Positions 9,398 through 20,717 of a stretch of 64,000 bases of DNA are shown here, in pieces. The notes under the pieces are model-generated. The model ran no database searches, was not told the origin of the DNA, and worked only from the letters and a program-made list of their open reading frames with translations. The translations under genes and the position numbers were made by a program. This DNA comes from Escherichia phage vB_EcoM_SA20RB. The stretch's first letter is position 1, and each line of letters opens with the position of its first letter. The stretch lies in sequence record OL960581; one strand, 5' to 3'.

Positions 9398-9466
9398 GTT
9401 ATCGAGTTGGTGCCATTATATACATCGTTTTCCGATTGTGTTTTGTGTGCTTTCAAAATGAAGAAA

Positions 9467-9480
9467 GGGGCCGAAGCCCC
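9467..9480 (-). terminator. Hairpin GGGGC-CGAA-GCCCC downstream of hoc
   Basis: 5-bp GC stem just 3' of hoc stop on minus strand. Confidence 0.45.
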
Positions 9481-9485
9481 TGAGA

Positions 9486-10904
9486 TTATGGATAGGTATA
9501 GATGATACCAGTTTCTAAAGCAGTTTTATGAATGATGTATCCATTACGTGATTCTTGAACATCAACTTCTGGATAGTCTTTCATCATCTTCTGAAGAGTG
9601 TAACGATGCAAGTAGTATTTACTATCTGGATCTTCAGTTTTCCAATCTTTACCTTCTTCAGTCATTTTTTGGATTTCATCCATAACCCACCAACCGCACC
9701 AGATATAAGCTGAAGTACGATGTGGAAGAGGATGAACATAAGGTAATTCACCTTCTGGTTCCGGAGCAACTTTATCAGTTACCTGAACTTGACCTTCTGC
9801 TGTGATAGTTTTGCTATCATAATCAGTGGCAGTAACAGTTGCAGTAACTTCAATAGTTTGACTTCCAATAGATGATGTATCAACGGTGTATACATTAGTT
9901 GACCCTTCTACAGGAGAAGAATCTTTCTTCCATGAATACGTAATTTGTGCTTCTTCCGGAGCATCCGTAACATTAGCAGTAAATGTAGCCGAAGCATCTT
10001 GCTGAACATTAATAGAAGGAGGAGTCAATGTAACCTGTGGATTCATTGTCTTCTTATTAACTGTCAATGATACTTCATTAGAAGTAACTTCCTTTTCATT
10101 ATAATTTTCTGCAGTTACTTGGGCTACGCATTTAATTCTTTTTACTCCACTTGTAGTTGGAGTATAGTTAAATGTAGAGTTAGTTTCTCCACCAACTTGT
10201 GAATCATCTACATACCACTGATACGTGGCAGACGCTCCATCAGGTTGAGAAGCTAAGGCAGCAGTAAATTGAACCGGGGTTCCAATTACTCCAGCAGCAG
10301 GACTAGCAGGAGTTACTGCCAAGGTAGTTGTCTGCGTCTTTTTATTAACAGTCAGTGACACTTCATTAGAAGTAACTTCCTTTGTATCATAATCTGCCGC
10401 GGTTACTTGAGCTACACACTTAATTGTTTTAACTCCGCTTGTGGAAGGAGTGTAATTGAATGTAGCAGAAGTTGCTTCGCCTACAGGAGAACCGTCAACG
10501 TACCATTGATACGTAGCAGTTGCGCCAGATGGCTGTGAAGCTAAGGCAGCAGTAAATTCAACGGCTGTTCCGATTACTCCTTCTGGAGGACTATTAGGAG
10601 TTACAGCTAAGGTAGTTGTTTGTGTCTTATTTTGAACTGTGATAGTTATAGTAGCTTCTGCTGTTTCAGCATCAGTATCTGGAACTGGGTTTGTTGCAAC
10701 TACTTTAATAGTTTTTTGACCGGCAGGTCCTTTTAGTACATAACTAAAAGTTGCTTCAGTTCCATCTTGTGGAACATCGTCTACAGTCCAAGCATATGTA
10801 ATAGGTCCATCTCCAGTTTGACCACTGGGTGTAGCAGTAAACTGCTGAGTCTGATCTATAACTCCAGTAGGTGTTTTAGGAGTTATATCAACTGTAAAAG
10901 CCAT
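9486..10904 (-). CDS. hoc: Hoc, highly immunogenic outer capsid protein, with four Ig-like repeats
   Basis: 472-aa ORF; MAFTVDITPKTPTG N-terminus and conserved capsid-binding C-terminus (YVHPLP...IYTYP); internal 96-aa tandem duplication. Confidence 0.9.
   Translation of the reverse strand: MAFTVDITPKTPTGVIDQTQQFTATPSGQTGDGPITYAWTVDDVPQDGTEATFSYVLKGPAGQKTIKVVATNPVPDTDAETAEATITITVQNKTQTTTLAVTPNSPPEGVIGTAVEFTAALASQPSGATATYQWYVDGSPVGEATSATFNYTPSTSGVKTIKCVAQVTAADYDTKEVTSNEVSLTVNKKTQTTTLAVTPASPAAGVIGTPVQFTAALASQPDGASATYQWYVDDSQVGGETNSTFNYTPTTSGVKRIKCVAQVTAENYNEKEVTSNEVSLTVNKKTMNPQVTLTPPSINVQQDASATFTANVTDAPEEAQITYSWKKDSSPVEGSTNVYTVDTSSIGSQTIEVTATVTATDYDSKTITAEGQVQVTDKVAPEPEGELPYVHPLPHRTSAYIWCGWWVMDEIQKMTEEGKDWKTEDPDSKYYLHRYTLQKMMKDYPEVDVQESRNGYIIHKTALETGIIYTYP
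10053..10628 (-). repeat. Tandem duplication of a 288-bp Ig-like domain unit inside hoc
   Basis: Residues 93-188 and 189-284 are near-identical (KTQTTTLAVTP...SNEVSLTVNK). Confidence 0.7.
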
Positions 10905-10913
10905 AAGTTATCC

Positions 10914-11594
10914 TTATTTTAATGTTACGAAAGAAGAATTGCGTGTTTCACGAATTAGAACTGATCCGTCGCGATTAATGTAATAAATTAAGCTAAATAA
11001 AGTTTGGTGTGCCAACGCATGTTCAAAACTAGTTGGGTGAGATTTCCAATCCGGAGTTTCAGCAATCCACTGGTAAATCCACCAAGGAACAGTGCAGAAT
11101 CCTGGATTTTTTCCAATTAGCTGAAGATTCGGACTAAAGTTTTCCGGAAGAGTAAATACAGACGGCTTTTCAGATTCAATAATCTCAGCTACAGCCTGTT
11201 CGAATTTTTCTTCAACAAAAGGAGTATCTTCAATCAAAACATCGGTATTTTCAGGAATTTTATCCGTTTCTACTACTTCAATTTTAATGTCAGATTTAAC
11301 CGGAGAATCAATCAGAAGTGCTGCTTCTGGATTGACTTCTTCATCGTCATATTTTAACCCCTCTGCAGCATCAGCAGCATTGATTAAGTCTTTAATAGAT
11401 AACCCATCAGTCTCTGGCATAGGTTCACTAGCGAGCTTCTGGAGGGCTTCTTCAATATCAACAACGATATTATCAAAAGATTTATTCTTTTTGACCTTTA
11501 TACCAAACTGTTCAGCATATTCAGCTAATTTAGCCTTAGCTTCTTTATTATCATCAAGAGCCTTCAGCTCTGCAATATAATCTTTATCTATCAT
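10914..11594 (-). CDS. inh: Inh, inhibitor of prohead protease
   Basis: 226-aa ORF convergent with hoc, T4 position and length. Confidence 0.8.
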   Translation of the reverse strand: MIDKDYIAELKALDDNKEAKAKLAEYAEQFGIKVKKNKSFDNIVVDIEEALQKLASEPMPETDGLSIKDLINAADAAEGLKYDDEEVNPEAALLIDSPVKSDIKIEVVETDKIPENTDVLIEDTPFVEEKFEQAVAEIIESEKPSVFTLPENFSPNLQLIGKNPGFCTVPWWIYQWIAETPDWKSHPTSFEHALAHQTLFSLIYYINRDGSVLIRETRNSSFVTLK

Positions 11595-11607
11595 AATATT
11601 TCCTCAG

Positions 11608-11615
11608 TATAAATA
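11608..11615 (+). promoter_or_regulatory. T4-type late promoter TATAAATA before uvsW
   Basis: Exact TATAAATA 30 nt upstream of uvsW ATG. Confidence 0.55.
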
Positions 11616-11644
11616 TAGATATATTTATTACATGGTATTTAGAC

Positions 11645-13156
11645 ATGACTGACATTAAAGTACATTTTTATGATTTTAGTCACGTGAGAATTGATTGTGA
11701 AGAAAGTACATTTCATGAACTCCGTGATTTCTTTAGCTTTGAAGCTGATGGGTATCGTTTTAATCCGAAGTACAAATATGGCCACTGGGATGGACGAATC
11801 CGTCTTTTAGATTATAATCGTCTTCTTCCATTCGGCTTAGTCGGACAAATTAAAAAGTTCTGCGATAACTTTGGCTATAAAGCTTGGATTGACCCACAGA
11901 TTAACGAAAAAGAAGAATTATCAAGAAAAGATTTTGATGAATGGCTTTCTAAGTTAGAAATCTATTCAGGAAATAAAAGAATTGAACCACACTGGTATCA
12001 AAAAGATGCAGTGTTCGAAGGATTAGTTAATCGTCGTAGAATTCTTAATCTTCCAACATCCGCAGGTAAATCTTTAATTCAAGCTTTGCTTGCACGTTAT
12101 TATTTGGAAAATTATGAAGGTAAAATTCTTATCATTGTTCCAACAACTGCTCTGACAACTCAGATGGCTGATGACTTTGTTGACTATCGTTTATTCAGTC
12201 ATGCAATGATAAAGAAAATCGGCGGTGGAGCATCAAAAGATGATAAATATAAAAATGATGCACCGGTAATTGTTGGTACATGGCAAACTGTAGTAAAACA
12301 ACCAAAAGAATGGTTCTCACAGTTTGGAATGATGATGAATGATGAATGCCATCTTGCCACAGGAAAAAGTATTTCATCTATCATATCAGGTTTAAATAAC
12401 TGCATGTTCAAATTCGGTTTGTCTGGTTCATTACGTGATGGCAAAGCCAATATCATGCAGTATGTTGGAATGTTTGGTGAAATATTTAAGCCAGTAACGA
12501 CTTCTAAATTAATGGAAGATGGACAAGTAACTGAGCTAAAAATTAATAGTATTTTTCTTCGTTATCCTGATGAGTTCACTACTAAATTAAAGGGAAAAAC
12601 TTACCAAGAAGAAATAAAAATTATTACTGGGCTCAGTAAAAGAAATAAATGGATCGCTAAATTAGCTATTAAACTTGCGCAAAAAGATGAAAACGCTTTT
12701 GTCATGTTTAAGCATGTATCACATGGTAAAGCTATTTTCGATTTAATTAAAAATGAATACGATAAAGTTTATTACGTATCAGGGGAAGTTGATACCGAAA
12801 CACGCAACGTAATGAAAACCCTAGCTGAAAACGGTAAAGGAATAATTATAGTAGCTAGTTATGGTGTATTTTCTACTGGTATTTCAGTTAAAAATCTGCA
12901 TCACGTTGTTTTAGCACACGGTGTTAAATCTAAAATTATTGTATTGCAAACAATAGGTCGCGTATTACGTAAGCATGGTTCTAAAACAATCGCAACGGTC
13001 TGGGACCTCATAGATGATTGCGGTGTTAAGCCAAAATCTGCTAATACGAAAAAGAAATATGTTCATTTGAACTATCTTTTAAAACACGGCATTGATCGTA
13101 TTCAGCGATACGCAGATGAAAAATTTAATTACGTAATGAAAACAGTTAATTTATAA
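11645..13156 (+). CDS. uvsW: UvsW DNA/RNA helicase (SF2)
   Basis: 503-aa ORF; Walker A PTSAGKS and DECH box (MMNDECH). Confidence 0.93.
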   Translation: MTDIKVHFYDFSHVRIDCEESTFHELRDFFSFEADGYRFNPKYKYGHWDGRIRLLDYNRLLPFGLVGQIKKFCDNFGYKAWIDPQINEKEELSRKDFDEWLSKLEIYSGNKRIEPHWYQKDAVFEGLVNRRRILNLPTSAGKSLIQALLARYYLENYEGKILIIVPTTALTTQMADDFVDYRLFSHAMIKKIGGGASKDDKYKNDAPVIVGTWQTVVKQPKEWFSQFGMMMNDECHLATGKSISSIISGLNNCMFKFGLSGSLRDGKANIMQYVGMFGEIFKPVTTSKLMEDGQVTELKINSIFLRYPDEFTTKLKGKTYQEEIKIITGLSKRNKWIAKLAIKLAQKDENAFVMFKHVSHGKAIFDLIKNEYDKVYYVSGEVDTETRNVMKTLAENGKGIIIVASYGVFSTGISVKNLHHVVLAHGVKSKIIVLQTIGRVLRKHGSKTIATVWDLIDDCGVKPKSANTKKKYVHLNYLLKHGIDRIQRYADEKFNYVMKTVNL

Positions 13157-13663: not shown

Positions 13664-13888
13664 TTATATAACTCTCATATGCATATCAATGCCCATATCT
13701 TTAGAATAAAAATATTCATCAAGATATCCGGCAAATTTTCCTTTAATATAAAGTACATCTTCACCGCATGGATGGTCGGCCAGGATACGAATATCCTGAC
13801 GCTTGAGATTATACTTTTTCATTAAGAATTGAATTTCCGTTTCAAATTCTTCTTCATAATTAAAAGCATCATCAATGCTATATTTCAT
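13664..13888 (-). CDS. Hypothetical protein (T4 uvsY.-1 position)
   Basis: 74-aa ORF, start codon overlaps uvsY stop. Confidence 0.6.
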   Translation of the reverse strand: MKYSIDDAFNYEEEFETEIQFLMKKYNLKRQDIRILADHPCGEDVLYIKGKFAGYLDEYFYSKDMGIDMHMRVI

Positions 13889-14301
13889 TATTTTCCAGCC
13901 TCAAATGCTCGCATGTCTTGAATATGCTTAATAGCAAATCCACGTGATTTAATAGCATCAAGAGCTCCGCTACAGAAATCCAATAAAATTCCCCAATATT
14001 GTAATGAAGTATCAACTTTTAAAACATCCTTATCAGCTGATAGAACTGTCTTCATTTCTGATTTCTCATAACGGTCCATACTAAATTCATCACCATCTCC
14101 TCGTCCCGAGTAGTAGTCTAATTTAGCTTTAAGAGCAACTTTTTTCTGTGCGTCAATTCTAAGCATTTCCTTTTTAATACTTGAATGCTTATTGAGCCAT
14201 TTACTATATAACATCACATTATTAGCTGCTTCATACTGTAATTTAGTCGAATCTATAAACACATCTTTCTTCAATTCTTCTTGAAGATCTTCTAATTTCA
14301 T
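13888..14301 (-). CDS. uvsY: UvsY recombination mediator
   Basis: 137-aa ORF, T4 UvsY length and position. Confidence 0.9.
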   Translation of the reverse strand: MKLEDLQEELKKDVFIDSTKLQYEAANNVMLYSKWLNKHSSIKKEMLRIDAQKKVALKAKLDYYSGRGDGDEFSMDRYEKSEMKTVLSADKDVLKVDTSLQYWGILLDFCSGALDAIKSRGFAIKHIQDMRAFEAGK

Positions 14302-14341
14302 ATTGTTCTCTATTCAATTGTTATTGGATGGACTTAGATTC

Positions 14342-14369
14342 ATTATACCACGTTTATACGTGAAGCATT
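14342..14369 (-). promoter_or_regulatory. MotA-dependent middle promoter before uvsY (MotA box TGCTTCA, 13-nt spacer, TATAAT)
   Basis: Minus strand reads aaTGCTTCAcgtataaacgtggTATAATg ending about 40 nt upstream of uvsY ATG. Confidence 0.55.
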
Positions 14370-14766
14370 ATACTCTGTTACTGGAAGCCAGTTGTAGTTT
14401 TATCTGCTCAATATCATCAGGGTTATCGATGACCGAAAAGCGTATTTCTACTATCAGAGTATAATCATCATAAACTGGTATTACATTAACTGCTAATTTA
14501 TCAATACGTGGCTCGTAGTTTCTTACTGCGCTTTCAATGTTACGCTCAACAGTATCAGCAGTAAGAGGAGTCATATTCTCAAAAAGCTGATCAGATAAAT
14601 CGCATCCAAATTCTGGGTCAAATGGCCTTGACCCTTTCCTGGTTGTAATAATTCCTAAAAGACTATTTTTAATTGACCTTAATCCAAGAGATCTGGAAAC
14701 GTCTTTGTCCCAATCCATTTTCATTTCTGGGTCAATGTCAGAATAAAGCTTATTAATATTTGCCAT
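14368..14766 (-). CDS. 25: Baseplate wedge protein gp25
   Basis: 132-aa ORF, T4 length and position. Confidence 0.9.
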   Translation of the reverse strand: MANINKLYSDIDPEMKMDWDKDVSRSLGLRSIKNSLLGIITTRKGSRPFDPEFGCDLSDQLFENMTPLTADTVERNIESAVRNYEPRIDKLAVNVIPVYDDYTLIVEIRFSVIDNPDDIEQIKLQLASSNRV

Positions 14767-15392
14767 TACAATAGCTCAAAGAATTCTTTGAGTCCTCTTA
14801 TTACATGAGCGTGAGATTTTCCACACTCTGGACACTTAATTGGAACAGCCAAATAAACAGTAGGCTTTAAAAGCATATCTTTTATAGCTACAATATCTGA
14901 CTCTGTGATGATAGAATATAAATCTTCCAACTCTTTTTCATTTAAGTCTTCAATTGGAATGCTTTCACCGTTAGCATGAATCGTTTCTATACATGATACT
15001 ATCATGTGGGCTATATTTTTATCATCAAAAATTTTAGGGTAATGGAACTTAATTTTAATGTCACCCAGTGTATACCAGAGGTCTTCTGGTGCATCTATTT
15101 GTGTATGTAATAGATTTATATGGGTTGGTATTTCAGTTCCGCAGGTGCACTTCCAGGAGTTTTCGTGATTAACTTCTCCAAGAGAATGTGCCCATAAATG
15201 AATCAATAGTAGTTCTGATTCTTGGCGGTTTAAATCTTTTGCATTTGTGCATTCTTTGATTAGCTTTTTAACGATCTCTTCTACTGAACCGTTCTTTTTA
15301 GCAGTAATAAGTTCTAGATATTCTTTAAGAGTAAATGCGCGACAGTTGATTATTTTAGAACCAACTCTCACATCAAATTTGTATTCATACAT
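14766..15392 (-). CDS. 26: Baseplate hub protein gp26
   Basis: 208-aa ORF, stop overlaps gene 25 start. Confidence 0.88.
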
Positions 15393-17845: not shown

Positions 17846-19614
17846 AAAAGCCACAAGAAATGCAAACGATGCGTAGAAAAGTTATTTCAGATAATAAACC
17901 AACACAGGAAGCAGCTAAATCCGCTTCTAACACTTTATCTGGACTTAACGATATATCTACGAAATTGGATGATGCTCAAGCTGCTTCTGAATTAATTGCT
18001 CAAACTGTCGAAGAAAAATCGAATGAAATAATTGGAGCAATTGACAATGTAGAAAGCGCAGTGAGTGATACTACTGCTGGTTCTGAGTTAATTGCTGAAA
18101 CTGTCGAAATTGGCAATAATATTAATAAAGAAATCGGTGAATCGCTCGGAAGTAAATTAGATAAATTAACAAGTTTACTCGAGCAAAAAATCCAGACAGC
18201 CGGAATTCAACAAACAGGAACTAGTTTAGCTACGGTTGAAAGCGCTATTCCTGTTAAAGTTGTTGAGGACGATACAGCTGAATCTGTGGGTCCTTTATTA
18301 CCGGCTCCTGAAGCAGTTAATAATGATCCTGATGCTGATTTTTTCCCTACCCCTCAGCCAGTTGAACCTAAACAAGAATCGCCAGAAGAAAAACAGAAAA
18401 AAGACGCATTTAACTTAAAATTATCTCAAGCTTTAGATAAATTAACAAAGACTGTTGATTTTGGATTTAAGAAATCTATTTCAATTACTGATAAAATATC
18501 AAGCATGTTATTTAAGTATACCGTCAGTGCTGCTATTGAAGCCGCTAAAATGACTGCAATGATATTGGCTGTTGTTGTTGGAATAGATCTGCTGATGGTT
18601 CATTTCAAATATTGGTCAGATAAATTTTCGCAGGCTTGGGATTTGTTTAGTTCAAACTTTACTAAATTCTCTAGCGAAACCGGAACATGGGGTCCTTTAT
18701 TACAGAGCATCTTTAGTTCTATTGATGAAATTAAAAAATTCTGGGAAGAGGGAGATTGGGGCGGTTTGACGGTAGCTATTGTAGAAGGGCTTGGAAAGGT
18801 TCTTTATAATTTAGGAGAACTTATTCAGCTTGGAATGGCTAAATTATCTGCTGCAATTCTTCGAGTCATTCCTGGCATGAAGGATACCGCTGATGAAGTA
18901 GAAGGAAGAGCACTAGAAAATTTCCAAAATTCTACTGGAGCATCTCTCAATAAAGAAGACCAGGAAAAAGTTGCAAATTATCAAGATAAACGAATGAACG
19001 GAGACCTTGGTCCGATAGCAAAAGGATTAGATAAAATTGCTAATTGGAAAACTCGTGCATCTAACTGGATTCGTGGCGTTGATAATAAAGAAGCACTAAC
19101 TACCGACGAAGAACGCGCAGCAGAAGAAGAAAAATTAAAGCAACTTTCACCAGAAGAAAGAAAAAATGCTTTAATGAAGGCTAATGAAGCCCGGGCCGCG
19201 ATGATTCGTTTTGAAAAATATGCTGATTCAGCTGATATGAGTAAAGACTCAACGGTTAAATCAGTTGAAGCTGCCTATGAAGACCTTAAAAAACGGATGG
19301 ATGACCCGGATTTAAATAATTCACCGGCAGTTAAAAAAGAACTTGCTGCTAGATTTTCTAAAATTGATGCTACTTATCAAGAGCTCAAGAAAAATCAGCC
19401 TAATGCCAAACCTGAAACTTCTGCTAAATCGCCAGAAGCAAAACAAGTCCAGGTAATAGAAAAGAACAAAGCACAGCAAGCTCCTGTTCAACAAGCATCT
19501 CCTTCAATCAATAATACTAATAATGTTATTAAGAAAAATACTGTCGTTCATAATATGACACCCGTAACGAGCACGACTGCTCCTGGTGTATTTGATGCGA
19601 CCGGAGTTAATTAA
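17842..19614 (+). CDS. 29: Baseplate hub / tail length determinator gp29
   Basis: 590-aa ORF. Confidence 0.9.
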   Translation: MKKPQEMQTMRRKVISDNKPTQEAAKSASNTLSGLNDISTKLDDAQAASELIAQTVEEKSNEIIGAIDNVESAVSDTTAGSELIAETVEIGNNINKEIGESLGSKLDKLTSLLEQKIQTAGIQQTGTSLATVESAIPVKVVEDDTAESVGPLLPAPEAVNNDPDADFFPTPQPVEPKQESPEEKQKKDAFNLKLSQALDKLTKTVDFGFKKSISITDKISSMLFKYTVSAAIEAAKMTAMILAVVVGIDLLMVHFKYWSDKFSQAWDLFSSNFTKFSSETGTWGPLLQSIFSSIDEIKKFWEEGDWGGLTVAIVEGLGKVLYNLGELIQLGMAKLSAAILRVIPGMKDTADEVEGRALENFQNSTGASLNKEDQEKVANYQDKRMNGDLGPIAKGLDKIANWKTRASNWIRGVDNKEALTTDEERAAEEEKLKQLSPEERKNALMKANEARAAMIRFEKYADSADMSKDSTVKSVEAAYEDLKKRMDDPDLNNSPAVKKELAARFSKIDATYQELKKNQPNAKPETSAKSPEAKQVQVIEKNKAQQAPVQQASPSINNTNNVIKKNTVVHNMTPVTSTTAPGVFDATGVN

Positions 19615-19622
19615 GGAATAAT

Positions 19623-20717
19623 ATGGCAATTGTTAAAGAAATAACTGCTGATTTAATTAAAAAGTCCGGTGAGAAAATTTCAGCCGGACAGAGTACTAAA
19701 TCAGAAGTAGCAACTAAAACATACACTGCCCAGTTTCCAACTGGGCGTGCTAGTGGTAATGACACTACAGGGGACTTCCAGGTAACAGATCTATATAAGA
19801 ATGGATTATTATTTACTGCATACAATATGTCATCTAGGGATTCTGGAAGTCTTAGATCGATGAGATCTAACTACTCTTCTTCATCTTCGAGTATTTTAAG
19901 TACAGCTAGAAACACTATTAGTAGTACAGTATCAAAACTATCAAATGGATTAATATCAAACAATAATTCAGGAACAATAAGTAAAGCTCCTGTGGCAAAT
20001 ATTCTTTTGCCGAGATCTAAATCTGATGTTGATACATCATCACACCGATTTAATGATGTTCAAGAAAGTCTTATCAGCAGAGGCGGAGGTACTGCTACTG
20101 GCGTGTTAAGTAATATTGCTTCAACTGCAGTATTTGGTGCGCTAGAAAGTATAACACAAGGTATAATGGCTGATAATAATGAACAGATTTATACGACAGC
20201 CAGAAGTATGTATGGCGGTGCTGAGAATAGAACTAAAGTGTTTACATGGGATTTGACTCCACGTTCAACAGAAGATTTAATGGCTATTATTAATATCTAT
20301 CAATATTTTAACTATTTTTCTTATGGTGAAACGGGCAAATCTCAATATGCTGCTGAAATAAAGGGGTATTTGGATGATTGGTATCGTTCTACGTTAATTG
20401 AACCTTTATCTCCGGAAGACGCAGCTAAAAATAAAACGCTATTTGAGAAAATGACATCGAGTTTAACTAACGTTCTAGTAGTTTCAAACCCGACAATTTG
20501 GATGGTGAAAAACTTTGGTGCAACATCTAAGTTTGATGGAAAAACGGAAATATTTGGCCCATGCCAAATACAGAGCATCAGATTTGATAAAACACCTAAT
20601 GGTAACTTTAACGGATTAGCTATTGCTCCAAACCTCCCTAGTACATTTACTCTTGAGATTACTATGAGAGAAATTATCACGTTAAACCGTGCTTCTTTAT
20701 ATGCGGGGACTTTTTAA
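19623..20717 (+). CDS. 48: Baseplate tail tube cap gp48
   Basis: 364-aa ORF. Confidence 0.9.
   Translation: MAIVKEITADLIKKSGEKISAGQSTKSEVATKTYTAQFPTGRASGNDTTGDFQVTDLYKNGLLFTAYNMSSRDSGSLRSMRSNYSSSSSSILSTARNTISSTVSKLSNGLISNNNSGTISKAPVANILLPRSKSDVDTSSHRFNDVQESLISRGGGTATGVLSNIASTAVFGALESITQGIMADNNEQIYTTARSMYGGAENRTKVFTWDLTPRSTEDLMAIINIYQYFNYFSYGETGKSQYAAEIKGYLDDWYRSTLIEPLSPEDAAKNKTLFEKMTSSLTNVLVVSNPTIWMVKNFGATSKFDGKTEIFGPCQIQSIRFDKTPNGNFNGLAIAPNLPSTFTLEITMREIITLNRASLYAGTF

Follow-up and report, generated by a model that had tools for sequence, protein, structure and literature searches.

Hoc is the usual example when the adherence of phages to mucus is discussed, and it is in wide use as a scaffold for display and vaccines. 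In the DNA analysed here, a stretch of 64,000 nt from Escherichia phage vB_EcoM_SA20RB (OL960581) that we refer to as the window, the hoc gene carries two adjacent copies of a 288-nt segment. This raises the question of whether the extra copy arose recently in this phage or is an older feature shared with its relatives. Our analysis makes the second answer very likely: the window hoc would be a common, old two-unit allele whose units diverged long ago and whose arrays are reshuffled by recombination, with the extra domain lengthening the Hoc fibre.

The hoc gene and its tandem repeat

The gene occupies positions 9486-10904 on the minus strand and encodes 472 aa plus a stop codon; in the ORF list it lies between a 24.3-like ORF and inh. 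We searched the protein against PDB sequences with phmmer, and the best match was T4 Hoc (5vf3_Z, 376 aa; E = 2.3e-216). The alignment fell into two stretches, with query residues 1-103 on T4 Hoc 1-103 and query residues 189-472 on T4 93-376 (576 bits), indicating that T4 Hoc has exactly one 96-aa unit fewer than the window Hoc. The gene order rnlB - 24.2 - 24.3 - hoc - inh - uvsW is the same as that annotated in T4, e11/2, ime09, and Pu-Krd-SF5. Over its first 25 kb, the window shares 97.9% identity with the Tequatrovirus phages ime09, G50, and IME339, and its source is a Tequatrovirus (T4-type) phage.

Expression signals were read from the sequence on both sides of the gene. A Shine-Dalgarno sequence, AAGGA (10911-10915, minus strand), stands 6 nt before the hoc ATG and overlaps the inh stop codon. 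An intrinsic terminator-like hairpin, GGGGC-TTCG-GCCCC followed by TTTCTT (9461-9480, minus strand), begins 5 nt past the hoc stop codon, and a terminator is annotated at the matching relative place in the e11/2 and G50 records. Two further observations concern the neighbouring inh gene (10914-11594). In the T4 record, a homing endonuclease gene of 618 nt separates inh from uvsW, whereas the window has a mere 50-nt gap (11595-11644) before uvsW (11645-13156); the same gap without a homing endonuclease is found in e11/2, slur14, Pu-Krd-SF5, IME339, G50, and ime09. In addition, a 97-aa ORF lies antisense within inh (11287-11580, plus strand); it is of low complexity, rich in Ser, Ala, and Leu, and is probably not a gene.

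We then delimited the repeat. Tandem Repeats Finder reported one array in the region, at 10048-10628, with a period of 288, 2.0 copies, 78% matches, no indels, and a score of 726. A direct-repeat search returned two 288-nt copies with a start-to-start spacing of exactly 288 nt. The interval 10053-10628 coincides with exact codon boundaries, with 10341-10628 encoding residues 93-188 and 10053-10340 encoding residues 189-284. An adjacent 288-nt repeat in this in-frame register is far beyond chance. The period of 288 nt equals 96 aa and one all-beta domain per unit, which is the layout of an in-frame tandem domain duplication. The first-pass annotation had described a tandem 288-bp duplication at 10053-10628, and its position and architecture were confirmed.

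The results showed that the 472-aa protein is Hoc, with four Ig-like domains and a capsid-binding domain, all encoded on the minus strand. Ig-like domain 1 (aa 1-92; 10629-10904) aligns with T4 Hoc 1-92 and is all-beta in the AlphaFold model (pLDDT about 85-93). Unit 1 (aa 93-188; 10341-10628), the first copy of Ig-like domain 2, was delimited by the repeat searches and by its match in e11/2; it has an EA centre, which we call A type, and matches the Pfam families PKD, BiPBP_C, and Ig_2. Unit 2 (aa 189-284; 10053-10340), the second copy, has a GE centre, termed B type; it was delimited by the repeat searches and by phmmer alignment to T4 93-188, and contains the best PKD stretch (197-267). Ig-like domain 3 (aa 285-376; 9777-10052) corresponds to T4 189-280, has Ig_3 and I-set Pfam matches at 289-373, and is modelled as all-beta (pLDDT about 90-95). 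The capsid-binding domain at the C terminus (aa 377-472; 9489-9776) is nearly identical to T4 Hoc 281-376 and was modelled with pLDDT below 60.

In the Pfam comparison, PKD scored 41.9 bits against a curated cut-off of 23.5, and BiPBP_C, PKD_3, and PKD_4 were also over their cut-offs; the scores of Ig_2, Ig_3, and I-set were just under theirs. The AlphaFold2 model had a mean pLDDT of 83.6 and predicted all-beta blocks at residues 1-91, 93-188, 189-284, and 285-376 with values of about 85-95; its input alignment was shallow, with 32 close relatives, and the low-confidence C-terminal domain was left out of use. The best PDB matches of the model in Foldseek were four-Ig fragments of Dscam1 (the N-terminal four Ig domains) and ICAM-5 (D1-D4), with a probability of 1.00 over 410-440 columns. 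Thus phmmer, Pfam, the AlphaFold model, and Foldseek all upheld the earlier count of four Ig-like repeats in 472 aa, against three in T4. Comparison of hoc with itself and alignment to T4 Hoc, a kind of check that the first-pass annotation had proposed, likewise showed that the two units are adjacent and that T4 is without one of them.

Unit number and unit types among T4-type phages

A whole-gene query matched 680 phage records. Among the best 60 of these, dozens contained a single 1419-nt piece at 93.5-97.1% identity, including Pu-Krd-SF5, KFS-EC3, IME340, PP01, slur02, and SHFML-11. Record spans were used instead of BLAST coverage, since the query is also covered in full (100%), by two joined pieces, when a gene has only one unit. 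In 60 evenly spaced records of the 680, 19 matches spanned about 1419 nt, 31 spanned 1131 nt, 2 seemed longer, and 8 were divergent or partial. When unit 1 alone was the query, matches were found at 890 places distributed over 616 records. The resulting 1.44 units per record is in keeping with approximately 365 genomes with one unit, 225 with two, and 20-25 with three or four. As estimated from the evenly spaced sample, the 1419-nt two-unit allele occurs in about one third of the T4-type genomes on deposit (about 200 of roughly 600).

Protein lengths fell into the same series, in which alleles with 1, 2, 3, and 4 units encode 376, 472, 568, and 664 aa. Among the best 120 protein clusters, Hoc was 376 aa in 80, 472 aa in 29, and 568 aa in 7, with one cluster each at 570, 567, 468, and 361 aa. 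The longest Tequatrovirus array that we found was in slur14 (LN881736.1, L002:1146-3140), whose 664-aa Hoc has four head-to-tail units with mutual identity of 72-84%.

Three of the matching records were unusual. MG010123.1, named 'Staphylococcus phage SAJK-IND' (32,172 nt), contains a full two-unit Tequatrovirus hoc at 18685-20103 with 94.2% identity and is probably a mislabelled or contaminated submission. In KX452698.1 (Shigella phage KNP5), the hoc match at 109965-112036 consists of two pieces over 2072 nt and covers 76% of the query; in OQ067374.1 (phage a20), the match at 13728-15143 covers 29%, and the annotation gives two Hoc-like CDSs and a hypothetical protein. The hoc genes of KNP5 and a20 may be interrupted or partly replaced.

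We next compared 166 units, taken from the best 120 protein clusters and the window. Identity between the two units of one protein was 74-85% in every one of the 31 two-unit proteins. Mean identity was 88% among first units and 88% among second units, against 80% between the two classes, and nearest neighbours followed position: first units paired with other first units and second units with second units, a pattern of positional orthology. An EA centre was found in 29/31 first units and a GE centre in 28/31 second units. Almost every two-unit allele has this A-then-B order, which, as judged from the unit sequences, speaks for one or a few old origins of the array and against many recent independent duplications. 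We propose that the old array (A then B) arose once or a few times and then spread among T4-type phages, and that later exchange between hoc alleles would have altered the number and the types of units.

Evidence for such exchange came from close relatives of the window. The three phages that are 97.9% identical to it over 25 kb all have arrays that differ from its own. In ime09 there are two units, of types unlike those of the window in both positions. IME339 has one unit, which informative-site patterns resolve into a mosaic of A and B tracts; by the same patterns, the unit of T4 is B type with an A-type 3' cassette. G50 (MK327942.1, L027:1469-2629) encodes a 386-aa Hoc with a single unit. 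The first 218 nt of this unit are a 100% match to window unit 1, the nucleotides after them are a 100% match to window unit 2 in its 3' part, and a tandem duplication of 30 nt, in which NEKEVTSNED is repeated, comes next. A crossover joining unit 1 to unit 2 in a window-like allele would produce such a structure. When other records with the exact U1::U2 junction and 30-nt duplication of G50 were sought, only G50 and its RefSeq copy were found; since the allele is confined to this record and its copy, it may represent a genuine contraction or an error of assembly. Chimeras with an A-type (EA) centre and the unit-2-type 'ENYNEKE' 3' cassette occurred in 6/83 one-unit clusters and in several independent phages, including T6. 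Near-identical backbones with different arrays, together with these A-5'/B-3' chimeric units, support the view that recombination between hoc alleles reshuffles both the number (1 to 4) and the composition of the units. The unit ends are the most conserved segments of the unit and are plausible exchange points. The first-pass annotation had named the repeat as a likely site of recombinational expansion and contraction. The 1-4-unit alleles, the differing arrays in 98% identical backbones, and the chimeras agree with this on an evolutionary time scale, but not with ongoing slippage of identical copies.

Recombination may also have created the array itself. In this alternative, co-infecting phages with diverged A- and B-type single-unit alleles underwent unequal, out-of-register recombination, and the one-unit alleles are ancestral and not secondary losses. 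A-type and B-type units each do occur as the only unit of one-unit alleles (e11/2 and T4, respectively), and the 83 single units comprised 66 with EA and 15 with GE centres. The conserved unit ends and the longest exact runs common to both window units, of 24 nt (unit positions 246-269) and 22 nt (71-92), could guide such an exchange, and three- and four-unit arrays are likewise made of diverged units. However, frequent independent events of this kind should also yield B-A, A-A, and B-B arrays, and the bias towards A-then-B is strong; a single old event of this kind would leave the same data as an old one-time duplication whose copies then diverged and were differentially lost. We regard this origin as possible, at rather less than even probability. 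The flanks were considered as a means of choosing between duplication in situ and heteroallelic crossover: domain 1 and domain 3 with the C-terminal domain were both nearer to e11/2 than to T4. As hoc alleles are mosaic, this similarity is uninformative on the origin of the array.

A broader proposal, which we advance only tentatively and with more doubt than conviction, is that domain 2 of Tequatrovirus Hoc is a recombining cassette array, in which at least 2-3 anciently diverged types (A, B, B'), maintained throughout the genus and joined in 1-4 units, are exchanged independently of the backbone. If true, the array would provide combinatorial tuning of fibre length and of glycan or antibody recognition, and a 'non-essential' decoration protein would by implication be under balancing or diversifying selection. 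Full-text literature searches returned no specific description of the Tequatrovirus domain-2 array.

Divergence and age of the two units

The two units of the window match at 77/96 residues (80%) and are 78% identical in nucleotide sequence. They differ at 63/288 nt, with 13, 11, and 39 differences at codon positions 1, 2, and 3, respectively. Nei-Gojobori estimates, used for both the hoc units and the flanks, gave dS 0.96, dN 0.12, and dN/dS 0.13 between the units; a dS near 1 is close to saturation and may be inflated if one unit type came from a more distant lineage. For the flanks (domain 1; domain 3 plus the C-terminal domain), dS between the window and four other phages was 0.07-0.31, and the maximum over all sampled Tequatrovirus pairs was 0.42. 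These results showed that the synonymous divergence between the units is approximately 3-10 times that of the hoc flanks across T4-type phages, that the units diverged long ago, and that both are under purifying selection. Of the 19 amino-acid differences that separate them, 13 fell at predicted non-strand positions, which make up 42% of all positions (Fisher p = 0.01); on the model, this concentration would be the expected pattern for a conserved Ig core with variable loops.

The same measures bear on the possibility that the extra domain has no functional consequence and is a neutral variation in length, with the number of units drifting through recombination and without effect on fitness. 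Hoc is dispensable in the laboratory (PMC10385173, PMC3012670), and very similar backbones are found with alleles of 1-4 units, as such drift would allow. Neutrality is nevertheless unlikely, given the dN/dS of the units and the reading frames, which were intact in 38/38 multi-unit proteins examined; the concentration of unit differences in loops and the persistence of two old unit types across the genus also speak against it. Moreover, single substitutions or changed domain content in Hoc have been shown to alter mucin binding (PMC11853027, and PMC9271167 to the extent that it is cited there).

A recent tandem duplication in the lineage of the window phage, as implied when the first-pass annotation called the copies near-identical, would account for their perfect head-to-tail adjacency, equal length, lack of indels, and single reading frame. 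However, it is contradicted by the nucleotide identity of 78% and by the dS of 0.96. In a lineage-specific duplication, the copies would be near-identical and mutually closest; here, each unit is nearer to units elsewhere (91-98%) than to its neighbour. Window unit 1 is 92.4% identical in nucleotide sequence (dS 0.24) to the sole unit of e11/2 and 77.8% to that of T4, and window unit 2 is 91.3% identical (dS 0.23) to the sole unit of T4 and 77.4% to that of e11/2; both are 96-98% identical to the corresponding units of Pu-Krd-SF5. The architecture is also shared with the roughly 200 deposited genomes estimated above. When recent duplicates were sought across 38 multi-unit proteins, none was found, the top within-protein unit identity being 85%. 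A recent duplication is therefore very improbable, and since the copies are not near-identical, none particular to the phage of the window took place. What remains of the earlier claim that tandem duplication created the extra domain is the adjacent, in-frame copy of domain 2; the recent event in the phage lineage does not stand, given the dS and the commonness of the allele.

An artefact of sequencing or assembly is scarcely credible as the source of the repeat: tandem repeats are prone to mis-assembly, and the relative G50 has a suspicious chimeric unit with its 30-nt duplication, but the window ORF is intact, both units are 100% identical in protein to units of independent database proteins (P0009 and P0012), the 1419-nt gene is recovered as one BLAST piece in dozens of independent genomes, and with 63/288 positions differing the units cannot be collapsed or expanded by typical assemblers. 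Judging from these sequence comparisons, the two-unit hoc of the window is an ordinary allele found in nature, not one newly produced by duplication.

Expected function and comparison with known Hoc proteins

On our preferred reading, an old two-unit allele, the extra domain would change the exposed part of the fibre and leave its attachment as in T4. Cryo-EM has shown that the C-terminal Hoc domain binds gp23* hexamers, and T4 Hoc forms a fibre about 180 Å long (PMC10385173). The C-terminal domain of the window Hoc is homologous to T4 Hoc residues 281-376, as expected of a member of the Hoc family. Because its last 96 residues are near-identical to those of T4 Hoc, C-terminal anchoring is probable here as well, and, as in T4, each gp23* hexamer of the mature capsid should carry one Hoc at its centre. 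The added domain would make the outward fibre longer by the length of roughly one Ig domain, about 22 nm instead of roughly 18 nm, and should show a second, non-identical domain-2 surface.

In the BAM model of mucus adherence, Ig-like domains that decorate the capsid bind mucin glycans directly. In PNJ-9 Hoc, residues S183, L184, and T185 of domain 2 are reported to bind MUC2 fucose (PMC11853027). We found S-L-T in both window units, at 183-185 and 279-281, as a sequence motif that was mapped in PNJ-9 hoc, which has 65% nucleotide identity to T4 hoc. It is plausible that the extra domain changes reach, avidity, or ligand range for glycans of mucus and cell surfaces. Approximately one third of T4-type phages have at least two different domain-2 copies, which bears on how mucin-binding experiments limited to the T4 allele are read. 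Allele differences of a whole Ig domain matter for the choice of therapeutic phages, and variation in the number of Hoc units bears on the design of longer or shorter display fibres.

Variation in the number of Hoc domains is already known. Hoc homologues have been described as a conserved capsid-binding domain with variable strings of 1 to 10 Ig-like domains (Fokine et al. 2023, PMC10385173), and a natural Hoc without domain 3 has been reported (Fu et al. 2024, PMC11853027). Since such variation was already published and the allele is common in databases, the two-unit hoc is a minor discovery.

The window Hoc and T4 Hoc are alike in gene position, domain 1, domain 3, and the capsid-binding domain at the C terminus, with window residues 189-472 corresponding to T4 93-376 with hardly a change. 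They differ in that T4 Hoc has one domain-2 unit, with a B-type centre and an ALS-type 3' cassette, whereas the window has an extra A-type unit before it, adding 96 aa. The 472-aa Hoc proteins of Pu-Krd-SF5, KFS-EC3, ime09, PP01, slur02, SHFML-11, and IME340 are encoded by a 1419-nt gene and have two units as in the window. Their genes are 94-97% identical to that of the window over the whole length, the protein clusters are 90-96% identical, and the differences are allelic only. UGKSEcP1/2 (568-570 aa) and slur14 (664 aa) contain the 96-aa unit of the window, with the same conserved ends (KTQTTTLAVTP ... VTSNEVSLTVNK), arranged head to tail, but have one or two units more, and the units within one array are 72-84% identical.

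More distant Hoc proteins have gained or lost other domains and are only 35-50% identical to the window Hoc overall. They include PNJ-9 Hoc, which is without domain 3, the Hoc of Serratia phage Muldoon, with 10 Ig-like domains, and those of IMG/VR T-even contigs, of 281, 376, and 470 aa. Two of these contigs, of about 170 kb (L009:2501-3910 and L010:2501-3907), encode a 470-aa Hoc in which domain 3 and not domain 2 is duplicated, the copies being 58% and 77% identical in amino-acid sequence in global alignments of the domains. Their clade is 47-49% identical to the window Hoc and includes L011, with a Hoc of 376 aa, and L015, with a Hoc of 281 aa without domain 2. The duplication of domain 3 and the absence of domain 2 in this other T-even clade indicate that gain and loss of hoc domains is recurrent.
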